From Octopus vulgaris (lineage: Eukaryota), in NCBI GenBank assembly GCA_951406725.2, contig OX597815.1:170624001-170688000 (forward strand): a stretch of DNA of 64,000 nucleotides, in the 5' to 3' direction. Below are positions 21,301 through 56,680 of this stretch, piece by piece. Below the pieces are notes generated by a model that saw only the letters and a program-made list of their open reading frames with translations, searched no databases and was not told the origin of the DNA. The position numbers and the translations under genes were made by a program. How positions within the stretch are numbered: the first letter of the stretch is position 1; the number at the start of each line of letters is the position of its first letter.

Positions 21301-24012
21301 ATTTCCGAGTGTAACACTTACCAAAGCCATTCATTTTAACCTATACTTATACGACACAACATTTATAAATCACCTTAATTCATACACAATCTCATCTGCG
21401 GATTACATCATGCTATTAAATTTCCGCTTCTACCCAGAACCCTCCATCTATATATGAATCGCGCTGCAATTCAAGATAATTCTTTCTTACTATTAACAAC
21501 GGGAGAACACCATATACAACAATAAAACATGCTGATGACACAAAAGTAAATTTGTAATACTTATATACAATGCTTGAACAATATTTACAGTGTACATAGA
21601 AGATAGTAAAGAAAGCATAAGCATCACATAGGAATCGCACTCGCAAGCATTATTTTAAACAATGCAAAGTATAGTGCAGATGTGCCTATAACAAATAAAC
21701 ACATCTGCAATGCTCAGAAATAGTAGAATAGAATTATATGCGCAAACTTCATTACTCTCTAACATACAAATCCCCATTGTATGACAGAATGTGTTATATA
21801 GACTCTAACGAAACTAAAGTATATTATATCTGAAGCAATTGGTTTGTGGATCTTAACTACTCATTCGGAGGTCTGCCTATTTACTATAGATCTACTAATC
21901 ATATTTGCCTAGGGCTAAAGTACAACAAAAGCAGTGATTTAATCAACTAGCTACTACTGAATTATTCTACATTCATTAACAATGTATTTCTTTTGATAGC
22001 ACTGAAGTGATTTTCCCAGTGTTTATGAAGACGTATTTGTTTTAAAATCTTGTTTTTATAGCTAATTATCTATCTATATAGGAAGATTAGAATTAAGCAT
22101 TCATTCAGATCACTTTATTTATTTATTTATTTATTTTGCTTTAAGAGGAAATTACATCCTTTTTTCTCTTCTTGTCCTTCAATAGTAACTTCGTTTTATG
22201 ATTTTGCAATTTATGTTTATAGACATTATCCTGAAGCTTTATATATTTCTGAGATTCGAAGATTTCGAGGTTAGATACTTGGTTGATTAAGCATTTCTCT
22301 AACATGAAAGATTTATTGAAATTCTACTTGCTTTCGTCTTAAGTAGTTTACTTAAAATTGCTTCGGAGGTAATCTTGGCTTCGTATTACTAATAGTTAAT
22401 AGGAAACAGTGATAGTGATTAAAGATAGTTGTTTTATAAACATACATAAAAGAAAACTTTGTTCCTTTAGGCAAAGATCTTCAAAATATTGGACACTGTG
22501 TTGAAAAACTGGTGAAGGATACTCGGAATATTGTTACATATGTCGGTAATAAAAGTGATTAAAACAGAGGTACAATGTGACTAAGTGGGATATAATAAAG
22601 TGTAGGAACCGTTACTAATGCTTCCTTGAAATACAGGAAATGAGAAGTACGTTTTCTTTCTTATTTTTAAATAATAATATCATCACTGCATAAATAATGC
22701 TTGCAGTACTTTGATTCATTCAAAAAGATTTCACATGTTTAGCGAAAGAACGAAAATAACATAAAAGGTTACACTTAACATCCAACACGAATATTTGTTA
22801 TTAATATTCTCCTGCTTCACAAATGCCCCGAGTTGCATGGAATCTTATCAGTAACTCTGTGTTTGTTTATGATTGTATTAATGTGAAACTATTACTAAGT
22901 GAACACGTACACACCTTTATGTGAAAGTCACTGGTATCACATGTTTGCGTTCATAAGTGTATTTATTCTTCAGTCAGTATGTATGCGCGCATGCAATAAA
23001 TTCGTACATATTTATATCATTACTGTGTACTGCGAAGATTTCCACTATTTCTCATGGTTGAATGTTTTTTGAGATTCTTTGACGATTCTTATATATTGAT
23101 TTGTTGCTTTGGGAGAATGCCACATGATATTTGGGTTGGCTCTGTTAATTAACACGACGCATGTACATAGCTGCTACTTATTCTATCGAACCTGGAGGAT
23201 GGAATTTAAAAGCATTGAACTATGCAAAGCTTAATTTAATGTTATATATTTCTGATGTAGTCACTTCATAACTGTTTACAGTTTAATAGAATATAGCATA
23301 CGCATACAATTTCTATTTCCGTGCGTGGAAGATCGAACGCAATACTATAAGTAAACAAAATTACTCAGTATTTCCCATTAGGTTCAATGATATATCGAAA
23401 TATCGTTATAGTGTCAGTGGGAAATTTAATATTCTTTGTCGGTAAAATTGTTTTTCGCTCTGTCGTTTGCATCAGAGCAAAATTCTGTGTCAGTGAAAGA
23501 ATTTGAAGACAAATTCGTGATATTTACCGAGTAGTCAAAATATTTTCCATTCGGTTATCGCAACTTTTCATATGTAGAAATATTATTTCTTTATATCAAA
23601 GAATGTTACACACACACACACACACACACACACAAGTGCCCCCTCACACACACACGCACATATTCTGTTTTACTCTTTTATTTGTATCAGTCATTTGACT
23701 GTGGCCATACTGGGTTTATTTTAGTAAAACAAATCGACGCCAGCACTCATTCTTTGCCTAACAGCTAGGTTAGAGGGACGTAAGCACACCAGGATCGGTC
23801 GTCAAGCGATGGTGGGGGAACAGACACACAAACATACATACATATACACACACACACATATATATATATATACGACGGCTTCTTTCAGTTTCCGTCTACC
23901 AAATCCACTCACAAGGCTTTGATCTGCCCATAGCTATAGTAGAACACACTTGCCCAAGGTGCCTCGCAGTAGGACTGAACCCGGAACAATATGGTTGGTA
24001 TGCAAGTTACTT

Positions 24013-26037
24013 TATTTCATTCGATTTGCCATTAAGGCATTACACAGAAGTAGTAGCTGTGGGCTAGACGAGGACACGATGATGATGAAATGACAGAAAT
24101 GGTTAATGGGAGAAGCAAGCATTGCCCGCTGATTGTTGCATTCTCGAAAACATTGCTCTTTTTATTTAAAAACAAAACAAAATGAGGCACCAAACATCTT
24201 ACCTCAGTTCAAAAATATTTGACATAATCGTCTTTACAAATTGAGAGGCTGAGCATCTTACCAAAGAATACAAACAATATAAACAATGAAAATTGAGGCA
24301 CTAAGACCTCTTATCCTTTCTCTCCAATCAGGCCATATGCCTCCTGCAGGCACTCCTGTAGTTCCAGGTGGGTGCGCAAAAAAGCAAAGCTATCCTGTTC
24401 CTTCGGAAAGGAGTCCATCACCCTGAACATTCCAACTTCCGTTAGCGACTCCGCAGTTACTTGCGGAGGCCAATACAGGTCTTCAGTCCAGGGCAAGGTC
24501 CCTCCCTCCGGCCCTCCAGCTTCCTTACGAAGCTCTGTATCGCCCCTCCCTTATGGAAGAAGATCACAATATCATCCGTCATAGCACTTGGAGGAAGCCA
24601 CAGTTTCCTCCGTCGGTGGCACAATTCCCACCGACGAGGTTTCAGGACATGCTGGCAGTGCAGTACCAACCGTCGGCAATGTCCCATACTTTGTATTTTT
24701 CTTTTTTTTCACCCTTGTGCTACGGGAGGTTGTTGTACCTCTGCTTTATTCGGAGGATCTTCCCTCTCTCCTGCAGCTTTAAGTTCCTTCGGTGAGCAAC
24801 CGTTGTTGCTCACCTTCTTCCTTTTATTTTTCCTTTTTTCGAGGAGGCCTCCACCTCCTCGACTACCTTCATCTCCTCCCCCCAAAGGTGAAGCGGGGGC
24901 CGCTACTTATATTAACTGCTCCAGGCCCCTATTTAGGGTACAGTTCTTATTATTATGCCCCGCTTCCAGGCACAGGTAATACTTACGGAGGGCGTCCCTC
25001 GAGAATCACCGTATACCTAGAACCAGCATTTTAAGAAATTCTTGAAACACCAGATTTTTGGCTGATTGGGTCCACAGGGTCAAAACCGCTTTTGATACCA
25101 CTCAACCAGCGCAGGCAAAATTTTGTCATTGAGGAGCTTGGCTCCGCTGCCACCAAGACCCCGGCGGATAGTGTCTTCTATCCACTCGTGTTCTATCCTG
25201 AGTGACAACTGTAGACCCAAGCCCTAATCAACTTCGTCCCACAATAAGTGGGAAGAAACAATATATCCTCGCCCTCTAAGGGCTGACTTGCAAAATTGCG
25301 AGCCTCTTCAGAAGTGTCAAATAGCAGCCACACCGTCGCATATTTGACACCCCTGGAAATAAATTTTATAGTTGGCATATACTCCGCCAACTTTCTTTCT
25401 ATGTCGGTCTTTATAAAGAGGGCGATGGTGTCGAGCGACTTGGAGTACGTTTGCAGCACCACCGTCCTCTCCTCAAAACTTTTTATCCACCGTTTGGGTA
25501 GGACAATTTCGCACTCCAGCACCTTATCTTTCTTTGCCATATTGAGAGCAAAAAAAGTTCAAACCTAAGTTCAAAAAAAGGTCCGAAGTCTAAACAAAAA
25601 GAAGATAGAAGAAAGAAGGAAGGTAGTTCAAAACACAGCAAAATAAAGCACAATTCCGGCCGAGAGTACTTCTGGCCTAGGGTAATCCACGAGCAGGAAC
25701 ACAGGGCCACAAAATTGGTACGAGTATCACAAAGTTTTGGTAAAATCCACAATTTTTGTTAAAATTCCACAATTTTTTGGGAGGTGAGACACGCCCCCAA
25801 AACAATAATTCTCACAGCTAAGTGAGTCACTTAGCGCGAGTCTACAGGCAGATAAATATCCGGGACCCGGTGAAGATTTCTTATTTACAAAAAGCAAAAC
25901 AATATCAAATAACAAACCCCGCTAAATCTCCTCAAAATCAGATGCCTACCTTACAGTCGCGCCTTCGACGTTTTTCAGTTGAAGCGCGCTGCGAAAGCAC
26001 GTCTTGACAGCATTCAGTGCAAAAACAACAGACTCAC
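24013..26037 (-). mobile_element. ORF1-only non-LTR retroelement (HAL1-like, L1/Tx1-type ORF1), 2025 bp
   Basis: Degenerate 11-bp TSD gcaagttactt (24002-24012) and gcaagctgctt (26038-26048). About 500-nt 5' UTR, one decayed gag-like ORF, about 300-nt 3' UTR ending ...aatgaaataaa. No room for an ORF2. Confidence 0.85.
24311..25540 (-). pseudogene. Frameshifted ORF1/gag-like protein with RRM-like region and CCHC zinc knuckle
   Basis: MAKKDKVLECE...ERTVVLQ...VWLLFDTSEEARNF...; then YTVILEGRPP and, after a frameshift, (Y)YLCLEAGHNNKNC = CX2CX4HX4C with first Cys TGT>TAT (24940-24981); basic low-complexity linker; C-terminus ...WPPQVTAESLT...LQEAYGLIGEKG*. Confidence 0.8.
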
Positions 26038-55740: not shown

Positions 55741-56296
55741 CCAGTGGGCCCCACGAGCATAATTCAGGAAGTAATTATGACCTGCACACGGGATCCCGAA
55801 TGGCCTCCGCAGGTAGCTGTGGAGGTCATAACGTTGCACGTGTTGCAAAGGCTTAAGAAGCTCAATGAGGAATATCGCTTGTAGTCGGGCGGCCCCGACA
55901 CGCCATCCGCTTTGAGCTTGAGTGAGGCGTGGAAAATGGCGGGGTACGGGGTCACAAGCGATACTGAAGAGGACTATGGGTAAGAGGTTGGAAAGCCTCG
56001 ATATTGTGAACTCATAAGAGGTTTGAAACCTCATTCTGTTTTTAACCAAGGTACGAGGCGAAGTGCCTCAGTTTTGTGTTTTAATTATCAATTATGAACA
56101 ATTGTAAGAGTTTTATTGCATCATGTATGATAAATAAGAGAACAATGTTTTCGGGAAACAACAATCGGCGGGCATTGTCTGTTTCCCCCATTAATCATCC
56201 TTTTCGTTTTTCATCTCATATAACATTATATCTGTGTCCAGCCCACAGATTACTTCTTTTTCTATGTAAAGCCATTATAGCTAATTTAATGAAATA
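55741..56296 (+). mobile_element. 3' fragment of a second, diverged ORF1-only retroelement
   Basis: Frame from 55741: ...TRDPEWPPQVAVEVITLHVLQRLKKLNEEYRL*...LSLSEAWKMAGYG...* (stop 55981-55983), homologous to the C-terminus at 24311-24496. 3' UTR taaataagagaacaatgttttcgggaaacaacaatcggcgggcatt...cccattaatcat...gtccagcccacag...aatgaaataaa is homologous to 24013-24170 (-). Confidence 0.82.
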
Positions 56297-56680
56297 AAGA
56301 AGCTTGCTTCCCAACCACATGGTTACGGGTTCCACAGGGTGGAAACTTGAGCAAGTGTCTTCTACTATAGAGTCGGGCTGACCAAAGCCTTGTGAGTGGA
56401 TTTGGTAGACGCCAACTCAAAGAAGCTCGTCGTATATATATATATATATATATATATGTGTGTGTGTGTGTGTGTGTGTGTGTGTGTTTGTTTGTTTGTT
56501 GTTTGTGTCTGTGTTTGTCCCCCGCCATGACTTGACAGCCGATGTTGGTGTATTTACTTCCCCGTCACCTAGCGGTTCGGCAAACAGAGAATAAATCCTG
56601 GGGTCGATTTATTCAACAAATAGTCGTGCTCCAGCATGACCGCAGTGAATTGACTGAAACAACTAAAAGCCTAAAAGAGT
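56297..56680 (+). mobile_element. Family A SINE lacking the first ~22 nt of its head
   Basis: aagaagcttgcttcccaaccacatggtt...caagtgtcttctactatag...ccttgtgagtggatttggtagacg...(TA)n(TG)n...gtgctccagcatgaccgcagtgaattgactgaaacaactaaaag. Confidence 0.88.

Follow-up and report, generated by a model that had tools for sequence, protein, structure and literature searches.

Octopus vulgaris very probably carries a Tx1-group non-LTR retrotransposon system whose insertions, made by TPRT, fall on a single base in a very common and probably tRNA-derived SINE. Two of its elements lie in the window, the whole 64,000-nucleotide stretch of DNA analysed here, together with occupied and empty copies of the SINE.

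24013..26037, minus strand: element 1, a near-full-length decayed ORF1-only retroelement (5′ UTR, broken ORF1, 3′ UTR) with a T-type target
24311..25540, minus strand: ORF1 remnant of element 1, its frame interrupted by stops and frameshifts, with no ORF2 after it; in intact relatives such as L128, two RRM-like domains and a CCHC knuckle
24027..24039, minus strand: 3′ hairpin of element 1 (4-bp stem, 5-nt loop), 14 nt before the 3′ end; common to autonomous and ORF1-only elements
26049..26070, minus strand: 5′ half of the host SINE (family A), with the start of the tRNA-like head, an A-box-like motif and a TGGT end at the insertion point
26038..26048, minus strand: 5′ copy of the element 1 TSD, 11 bp, 9/11 identical to the 3′ copy
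24002..24012, minus strand: 3′ copy of the TSD; the SINE 3′ half opens with these 11 nt
23661..24001, minus strand: remaining host SINE (B-box-like motif, body, microsatellite, tail), end approximate
55766..56296, plus strand: element 2, a 3′ fragment of a different ORF1-only subfamily with an A-type target; its 5′ part and the 5′ SINE half are missing
about 55777-55983, plus strand: ORF1 C-terminus of element 2, followed by the 3′ UTR
56270..56282, plus strand: 3′ hairpin of element 2, with an A-T closing pair and one mismatch
56297..56682, plus strand: 3′ half of the element 2 host SINE, an older AAGAAG/TTCC variant with the same start base as that of element 1
57673..58061, minus strand: intact empty copy of the same SINE, with a visible unoccupied TGGT^AAG site
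42590..42915, minus strand: a further unoccupied copy of this SINE, with approximate boundaries

Element 1 splits its SINE, as the earlier note had proposed: the 5′ half ends in TGGT at 26049, the 3′ half begins at 24012, and the degenerate 11-bp duplication reads AAGCAGCTTGC / AAGTAACTTGC (9/11 identical). The SINE resumes after element 2 at 56297, and the two elements do end at the same SINE base. That both junctions fall at TGGT^AAG is seen on both sides of element 1; for element 2 it is deduced from the 3′ side, because neither a SINE 5′ half nor a TSD was found upstream (no plus-strand SINE head is listed). The 3′ regions are homologous, as claimed (local score 170 versus 26 ± 4, maximum 41, in 200 shuffles). 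Further details had to be corrected. Family similarity of element 2 begins at about 55766 rather than at 55741, and the ORF remnants, described as sharing just scattered residues, belong to one ORF1 family: across 925 nt, element 1 matches a copy of the element 2 type at 68%. Both elements are confirmed as decayed copies of a genome-wide family; element 1's family is ∼ 8% diverged from its own majority and element 2's ∼ 6.5%. Among 5,000 positions drawn at random from the window, 3 passed the flank test by chance.

Site-specific targeting of the SINE head, suspected from the window, extends to the genome. The exact junction, ATGAAATA followed directly by AAGWAGCTTGC, was counted 1,007 times, whereas the reversed control gave 2. 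Over five samples chosen by element sequence alone, 70–100% of 3′ ends had their flank in the SINE target: 41/41 young autonomous (the first 38 of 104, to which a selected tandem triple was added), 30/30 young ORF1-only (the first 30 of 259) and 16/20 older autonomous ends (18 by eye), and 19/27 (intact 3′ end) and 25/30 older copies. All 71 young insertions occupy the SINE site, original or regenerated, with the first six target bases invariant throughout. Four of the eight off-target copies among the 27 start with partial target matches; five of the 30 were also off target. Exact target sites number 710 occupied versus 74,034 free (0.95%), and at this occupancy of ∼ 1% the elements exert no meaningful control of, or brake on, the SINE. 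Disabling of the SINE promoter is predicted from the geometry for each occupied copy, and the SINE may act as a safe harbour for the elements.

An autonomous driver, probably of Tx1 type, with the same 3′ end and junction, which the earlier note had suggested looking for, was found. It is 5.43 kb long and encodes ORF1 and ORF2 (APE endonuclease/RT/zinc knuckle). In the intact copy L141 these are 467 and 1,133 aa; its ORF2 matches Exo_endo_phos (PF03372), RVT_1 (PF00078) and zf-RVT (PF13966) above cut-off, the catalytic motifs were located, and the best PDB match of driver ORF2p is human L1 ORF2p (E 8e-67). The RT tree places the driver in a clade of 46 rows (quick tree, SH-aLRT 97) that also holds elements inserted in U2 (five), U1 (one) and 5S (one), and there it branches apart from the U2 group; this clade is distinct from plant L1, CR1-like and RTE-like rows, in a tree built without vertebrate L1 or named Repbase Tx1. 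The copies bear the TPRT signature of a fixed 3′ end, variable 5′ truncation and a TSD of 10–20 bp; in several truncated copies (L069, L151, L156, L167) the TSD is 0–7 bp. Autonomous 3′ ends of both T-type and A-type exist; none of the young autonomous elements seen was A-type, even though one ORF1-only subfamily of that type is just 2.8% diverged (seven copies, picked by protein score).

The passengers are indeed an ORF1-only, non-autonomous family. ORF2 is absent inside 20/20 long-ORF loci, each ∼ 2.25 kb, and the ORF2 matches in 5 of 125 ORF1-bearing sources all lie outside the element. Passengers are 2.2 kb long with an intact 414-aa ORF1 (e.g. L128), and their exact young 3′ ends outnumber those of the driver (259 versus 104). 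Passenger and driver ORF1 are 29% identical. The ORF1-only lineage L068/L166 is 40% like driver ORF1 and 27% like the main passenger lineage, which suggests that the ORF1-only form arose more than once. ORF1 appears to be kept by purifying selection, with dN/dS of 0.09–0.24 (15 pairs of six subfamily majorities; dS up to 1.9), but the within-cluster control is also < 1 (0.26–0.64) and thus provides no clean neutral baseline. The model of passenger ORF1 (pLDDT 71.5) contains two RRM-like domains (best Z 8.0–8.3, a middling score), and its Atlas neighbours are CCHC/ZCCHC3-type (0.91–0.93); the zf-CCHC match is at cut-off in the driver and slightly below it in the passenger. HAL1 proper derives from mammalian L1 and has a Transposase_22 ORF1. 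The octopus passengers are not HAL1 proper, since 19 ORF1 segments gave no match to Transposase_22 and named relatives are octopods only.

Driver and passengers have a common 3′ end. Of their ∼ 37 terminal bases 29 align, and in the 3′ hairpin 92.7% of cells are paired, with 16 double changes; 0/500 shuffles scored as high, slid controls gave 15–49%, and RNAalifold recovered the same hairpin independently. At their 5′ end, full-length copies bear target bases that come from the donor: donor-type CTAAC stands at the 5′ junction in 19/19 informative copies (one is a stack and is to be discounted).

We propose that the 5.43-kb element supplies ORF2p, whose APE endonuclease (intact as a protein) would nick the bottom strand immediately after the A box, across from TGGT^AAG[T/A]AG. 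ORF2p may load on any RNA that has the 4-bp hairpin plus TGAAATA at its end, so that the 2.2-kb ORF1-only elements, making their own RNA-binding ORF1p, would ride in trans. As the junctions show, a second cut ∼ 15–16 nt downstream produces a TSD in which host variants are carried. Full-length RNAs probably begin inside the donor's own 5′ TSD, as the junction pattern suggests, which would give the cDNA an end of ∼ 5–7 target-like bases that pairs with and overwrites TSD positions 11–15. The target is regenerated, and elements therefore stack head-to-tail.

Each subfamily is restricted to one SINE variant at +4 (AAGTAG or AAGAAG). As the cause we lean, over RNA pairing, towards driver lineages that coexist and whose endonucleases differ slightly in preference. 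A-type and T-type autonomous lineages both exist, so endonuclease differences suffice, and the T clade is nested within A copies (99/96), fitting a driver switch in time. A competing view, possible though we think it the less probable, keeps the same TPRT and replaces just the last step, and is compatible with most of the scheme: RNA reading through into the donor's downstream SINE bases would pair with the nicked strand, and a subfamily would inherit its target variant from the donor flank. One endonuclease might then serve all subfamilies, guided by SINE bases at both transcript ends, a proposal of similar, limited probability. Target-derived RNA is indeed seen at the 5′ end; at the 3′ end, the read-through RNA is a prediction. 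Sister ORF1-only subfamilies of similar age (2.8% and 2.5%), with a single-base difference in their last 30 nt, use opposite variants, tails in TGTAAT being followed by 10 A and 0 T, and tails in TGTTAT by 10 T and 0 A. The variant label requires 11 changes on an 84-row tree, eight of them forced by starred branches. Young elements also prefer TAAC at +13 (24/28 exact hosts versus 27/78 free T-type sites, p 5e-6), and for R1Bm and further site-specific LINEs, first-strand synthesis is described as involving pairing of the RNA with its target (PMC6895275). The two TSD copies carry the same +4 base in 54/55, so the RNA does not overwrite +4; pairing is still compatible with this. If RNA is the guide, lineages including ORF1-only passengers copy the donor-flank preference and follow the SINE as it evolves.

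Direct reading of DNA by the endonuclease could be dispensed with if the elements were tethered to RNA polymerase III factors on the SINE A/B boxes, like TRE5-A or Ty3. The position of the site, bordering the A box on its 3′ side, the constant sense orientation and the preference for young SINE variants are what tethering would give. It is nevertheless improbable, as it fits poorly with single-base precision and six invariant bases, with stacked insertions (7/52) that form with the A box displaced by 2–5 kb, with off-target copies (L005, L008, L022) that begin with partial matches in non-SINE DNA, and with the lack of junctions to real tRNA-Lys/Arg genes; TRE5-A lands near, not inside, its target (PMC3706591).

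The suggestion that the parent tRNA is a target found no support in a test of limited scope, and it is very unlikely that tRNA genes are the true target and SINE insertions spill-over. The SINE head is tRNA-like, aligning in register with host tRNA-Ala/Lys genes (z ∼ 6 versus shuffles) with the insertion site at the D-loop edge, and other elements are known to target tRNA genes (PMC3706591). However, the element tail joined to the tRNA-Lys(TTT) or tRNA-Arg(TCG) pattern gave 0 matches for these isotypes, AAG[TA]AGCTTG is missing from all 20 tRNA genes that were sampled (Ala, Arg, Cys, Glu, Lys, Thr), and the young insertions are all at the SINE site or its regenerated copy. The SINE itself gave no Rfam tRNA match, and ARAGORN found no tRNA in 240 loci and the window. 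Octopus SINEs have been published before (Ohshima and Okada 1994), and the name OR1 appears in PMC4824008.

Amplification of one ancestral element–SINE chimera as a unit, which the near-constant 5′ junction of young full-length copies and the link of each subfamily to one SINE variant might suggest, is refuted by varied 5′ truncations, host-variant TSDs and divergence: 37 young autonomous copies differ by 1.8% (last 300 nt) and their hosts by 10.7% (Mantel rho −0.14, p 0.85). The SINE is split around each of the truncated copies, which are of many lengths; in L149, L151, L156, L167, L191 and L054 a SINE 5′ half lies at the copy's own breakpoint, and private host variants occur in both TSD copies of L132, L117 and L149. 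Several SINE variants are found among the hosts, and the site is common to autonomous elements and two separate ORF1-only lineages. The insertions are thus independent, as first supposed.

Whether the endonuclease or RNA–target pairing sets the specificity of APE-type LINEs, and how specificity changes, is a standing question. The octopus system offers a natural, recently active and well-sampled site-specific LINE with a target that is a repeat and itself evolves fast. Because single-base target differences can be mapped onto hundreds of dated copies, the question becomes directly testable, and the intact copies L141 and L128 make the system assayable. Octopus repeat annotation is affected as well: counts of split SINEs and of stacked elements will be wrong.

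Among known systems, Dada is a DDE DNA transposon with 6–7 bp TSDs in real tRNA genes (PMC3706591, PMC8869645). Like the octopus family, it inserts site-specifically at the A box of a polymerase III promoter or close to it; the word SINE has 0 occurrences in the main texts of these two papers. At the R2Bm 5′ junction, cDNA pairs with the upstream target (PMC6895275), and there, as probably in the octopus, target-derived bases at the RNA 5′ end pair with and replace target. R2Bm is an RLE element with 27 nt left by a ribozyme, whereas in the octopus APE element the junctions point to ∼ 5–7 nt inside a 15–16 bp TSD.

A Type I ORF1 combines RRM and a CCHC knuckle (PMC5203782), an architecture also found in the octopus family. 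ORF1-only LINEs are described in the L1 (HAL1), Jockey (HeT-A) and CR1 (Ag-Sponge) clades (PMC5786205, PMC5753468). Like these, the octopus passengers have a 5′ UTR, a single ORF1 and a LINE 3′ end without ORF2, and are probably mobilized in trans; unlike them, they are probably Tx1-group elements, with an RRM-RRM-CCHC ORF1 far from that of the present driver, and a sequence-specific SINE target. They would extend ORF1-only LINEs to the Tx1 group, with ORF1 apparently under long purifying selection.

Keno inserts into U2 snRNA, Mutsu into 5S rRNA and Dewa into a tRNA-Leu spacer (PMC4494074, PMC3706591). The octopus RT groups with U2-, U1- and 5S-inserted elements, but its target is a selfish, evolving repeat with > 74,000 sites rather than a conserved host gene. 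Identity with Keno or Mutsu is ruled out by the position of all 71 young insertions. A similar duplication of ∼ 16 bp, read by eye, is present at U2 in L287.

Another close parallel is with Tx1-clade LINEs that insert into transposons: Tx1 into Tx1D (Xenopus), Tx1-Mar into Mariner-N4_AMi, Tx1-9_AMi into Harbinger, and Tx1-8_Crp and Tx1-4_AMi into LTR elements (Kojima 2015, PMC4494074). A family counts there as target specific when > 20% of flanks lie in one repeat, a threshold that the octopus family far exceeds. Both are APE-type, L1-group elements inserting sequence-specifically into a dispersed repeat, and in both non-autonomous passengers (SINEU in that case) share the target; no SINE is named as a target in the excerpted text of that paper. 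In the octopus the host is a probably tRNA-derived SINE, cut inside its putative promoter, the passengers are protein-coding and ORF1-only, and all young copies sit at one base with subfamily-specific variants. A known targeting habit thus has, in the SINE head, a landing site that is new.

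The window features discussed here are as follows.

24013-26037, minus strand: element 1, a decayed ORF1-only retroelement
44820-48686, plus strand: a separate LINE; endonuclease-like and RT sequence lies in its open frame of 829 codons (45844-48330)
50573-50800, minus strand: a second abundant SINE (about 235 nt), with a tandem piece at 50455-50572
about 55680-55740, minus strand: an inverted tRNA-like head of another repeat family (recognized by eye), immediately upstream of element 2
55766-56296, plus strand: element 2, a decayed ORF1-only retroelement

Element 1 interrupts a family A SINE, a host repeat with a tRNA-like head, at TGGT^AAG and is flanked by an 11 bp duplication (9 of 11 positions identical), as the earlier note had described. 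For element 2, the 3' junction proposed there holds (its last base is 56296, after which the SINE continues from the same position as at element 1), but the length does not, since family similarity begins at 55766. Neither the 5' half of the SINE nor a target-site duplication (TSD) was found in its flank within the window. The inverted tRNA-like head lies where the missing 5' part of element 2 would stand. The 3' regions of the two elements are indeed homologous (alignment score 170 versus 26 ± 4 in 200 shuffles). The separate LINE groups outside the L1/Tx1 rows of our RT tree; similar sequence is contained in L126 (L-numbers denote individual loci fetched from the genome or from metagenomes).

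Across the genome (2.8 Gb, 227 contigs) a pattern count gave 1,007 occurrences of the junction ATGAAATAAAGWAGCTTGC versus 2 for the reversed control. Tabulating the flanks of 3' UTR copies, chosen by element sequence only and including the window's own copy in each sample, bore out the predicted targeting. For element 1 (the best 30 of 40 scored, of 319 candidates), 18 copies lie in the SINE in register and one at the site followed by another element, while 8 are off target and 3 have no 3' end. For element 2 (30 of 40 scored, of 422 candidates) the corresponding figures are 24 in the SINE, one at the site followed by another element and 5 off target. The same flank test is passed by 3 of 5,000 random positions. 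Young ORF1-only 3' ends were in the SINE in 30 of 30 cases (the first 30 of 259). SINE family B tails are excluded from the target tallies. By matched 22-nt target patterns, 628 + 82 sites are occupied and 74,034 free; with 0.95% of sites occupied, the elements cannot restrain the SINE.

An autonomous partner sharing the 3' end and junction was sought and found, about ten of 30 junction loci carrying LINE ORF2 C-termini upstream. This driver includes a young family with 104 exact 3' ends. Among the 40 regions fetched for it (the first 38 on the list and two picked so as to include a tandem triple), every one of the 41 young driver ends is followed by AAGTAG; the sequence then continues as SINE body in 38 and as the next element in 3. 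The intact copy L141 (5.43 kb) encodes an ORF1 of 467 aa and an ORF2 of 1,133 aa with APE endonuclease, RT and zinc knuckle, whose best relative of solved structure is human L1 ORF2p. In a quick RT tree (77 rows, 37 of 114 having been dropped as redundant) L141 falls inside a 46-row clade (SH-aLRT 97) with elements flanked by U2, U1 or 5S genes; plant L1, CR1-like and RTE-like rows fall outside it. Keno and Mutsu, two Tx1 families, are described as targeting U2 and 5S, respectively (PMC4494074, PMC3706591). Because some of its clade-mates sit in these genes, the driver likely belongs to the Tx1 group, as judged from a tree that holds no named Tx1 reference. Of 20 ends from older autonomous relatives, 16 fall at this base by the flank test (18 by eye), and the T variant of the target (see below) is found in none of these 20. 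Element-protein relatives with names come from Octopus vulgaris, O. sinensis, O. bimaculoides and Argonauta hians, and the nearest unnamed relatives have 50-54% RT identity; the metagenome scan gave distant relatives only (24-42%). Seven metagenome contigs (L287, L288, L289, L290, L295, L310 and L293) carry LINEs inside snRNA genes (U2 in five, U1 in one) or a 5S rRNA gene (one).

Amplification of a single element-SINE chimera as a unit is ruled out by the uncorrelated divergence of elements and hosts: 37 young drivers (L144, L179 and L180 left aside) differ by 1.8% over their last 300 nt and their host SINEs by 10.7% (Mantel rho -0.14, p 0.85). The independent insertions favoured in the earlier note are thus upheld. 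Truncated copies of about 50 nt to 1.65 kb each lie within a split SINE, and host variants private to one locus occur in both TSD copies of L132, L117 and L149. Duplications around truncated copies measure 14-16 bp in L149, L191, L127 and L054 and 0-7 bp in L069, L151, L156 and L167.

Searching with the ORF1 N-terminus of element 1 yielded 8,521 candidates, of which 150 were scored. All 20 loci picked for long open frames are elements of about 2.25 kb that lack ORF2, and in most of them a single ORF of about 414 aa is intact; twelve young copies of this passenger are 99.5% identical. Its ORF1 is predicted to combine a CCHC knuckle with two RRM-like domains (Z about 8, a middling score, for a model of pLDDT 71.5). 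Identity to the driver ORF1 is only 29% over 196 aa, which marks the passengers as an old lineage. Comparing the majorities of six subfamilies gives a dN/dS of 0.09-0.24 (dS up to 1.9), against a within-cluster control of 0.26-0.64 that offers no clean neutral baseline. A second ORF1-only lineage (L068; L166, upstream 408 nt) has a different ORF1 and 3' UTR and the same target site, its ORF1 being 40% like that of the driver and 27% like that of the main passenger lineage. Drivers and passengers have only the last 37 or so bases in common. Within this common end lies a 4-bp hairpin with 16 compensatory cells across 31 sequences; no shuffle out of 500 reached as high a value, and slid positions are 15-49% paired. 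Stem-loops of this kind at the 3' end are described as a mark of stringent LINE recognition (PMC3747384). In a single presumed-RNA run the SINE was covered and the element almost uncovered. For the intact passenger L128, all 30 bins are covered by contigs of three runs that bear other organism labels; none of the pieces listed for these runs extends across the 3' junction with 31 letters on either side.

Two further observations concern passenger copies. L185, a minimal passenger of 106 nt that has lost its interior, fuses an ORF1-only 5' end directly to its last 43 nt; the SINE that it splits shows a full TSD. The ORF1 N-terminus search also returned four near-identical matches on contig C31 (with L140), and their position beside a long satellite-like repeat suggests segmental duplication and not separate insertions.

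Of 52 full-length young 5' junctions, 19 lie in hosts with something other than CTAAC at TSD positions 11-15; the 5' side reads CTAAC in every one of these (one is a stack and is to be discounted). A-type families likewise have CTTCC on the 5' side (L093, L098, L108). From these junctions we infer that transcripts would begin within the donor's TSD and that the cDNA end would pair with the target and overwrite it. Hosts carry CTAAC at 32 of 50 full-length and 1 of 5 truncated copies, numbers too small for a test. One extra T at TSD position 9-11 appears in 16 of the 52 junctions, in drivers and passengers (L141-L180, L121-L139), possibly through slipped pairing or as a non-templated base.

Head-to-tail stacking was also seen (loci L123, L130, L133, L153, L166, L177 and L179). 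Leaving the tandem triple aside, 6 of 50 full-length young copies immediately follow the 3' end of another element, compared with about 1% of sites occupied (binomial p 4e-6 at 0.84%, 0.004 at 3%). As the residents of L130, L133 and L153 are 98-99.7% identical, these events may not all be independent. The triple itself, L179-L180 (G000:C9:2664155-2682154), consists of three full-length autonomous elements in one SINE at a spacing of about 5.4 kb; the extra T common to two of its junctions makes duplication or read-through possible.

The SINE variants differ in age. Divergence from the majority is 11.5% for AAGAAG/TTCC (12 free copies), 6.3% for AAGTAG/TTAC (24) and 3.2% for AAGTAG/TAAC (14). 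The A-type (AAGAAG) accounts for 22 among the first 100 listed free sites, which all lie in the initial 3 Mb of contig C1, and for 19 of 72 free heads in fetched loci. Young elements have T as the fourth target base in 71 of 71 cases (p 3e-6) and the set of element 2 has A in 19 of 19 clear cases (p 5e-11). This base is host-derived, since the TSD copies agree in 54 of 55. In one clade of the ORF1-only tree (young families thinned to 5 per tail, 14 autonomous-like rows removed) 14 T copies group together inside a set of A copies (99/96), T and A being 2.5% and 2.8% diverged, respectively. Use of the A-type first and the T-type later, by timing alone, fails because the T-type family of element 1 (8%) is no younger than the A-type family of element 2 (6.5%). 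Either coexisting drivers differ in endonuclease preference, or pairing of read-through RNA selects the variant.

The parent tRNA, which the earlier note had offered as an alternative target, found no support: the junction pattern gave 0 matches to tRNA-Lys(TTT) and tRNA-Arg(TCG), the two isotypes searched, and the recognition sequence is in none of 20 tRNA genes (of 34 listed matches, six amino acids). The SINE head aligns in register with tRNA-Ala and tRNA-Lys genes (z about 6), placing the site just beyond the A box. ARAGORN called no tRNA for the head, and Rfam searches of SINE loci returned low-complexity miRNA-like matches only and no tRNA.

The second SINE, also present in L003, L130, L211 and L239, has a tail of about 70 nt that is homologous to the 3' end of the autonomous element and in which the hairpin recurs in a form of its own. 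After roughly half of the 49 ends seen, the next sequence is the GGTATTTCG from inside this same SINE, so that 184-nt tandem arrays result; two or three of the ends lie at the site in family A. Reverse-complementing the internal motif gives the last six bases of the second SINE, a sequence relationship that suggests the arrays may arise through RT stalling and template jumping.

We found no description of this system in the literature covered, Repbase, several primary papers and supplements lying outside that coverage. The main text of an octopus repeat annotation, which reports 13 recently active L1-Tx1 families (PMC13282606), contains neither 'target' nor 'nested'; its repeat library may hold these families. 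Tx1 elements are described as targeting DNA transposons, LTR elements, snRNA and 5S genes and microsatellites (PMC4494074), and ORF1-only LINEs are listed for Jockey, L1 and CR1 (PMC5786205, PMC5753468). For R2Bm, pairing of the cDNA end with the target has been proposed with 27 nt (PMC6895275), and the overwriting that we envisage here would be similar. The targeting is real and strong and ordinary in principle, and the system offers unusually good natural data on shifts in target specificity: it is a known habit with a new target and a new type of passenger.
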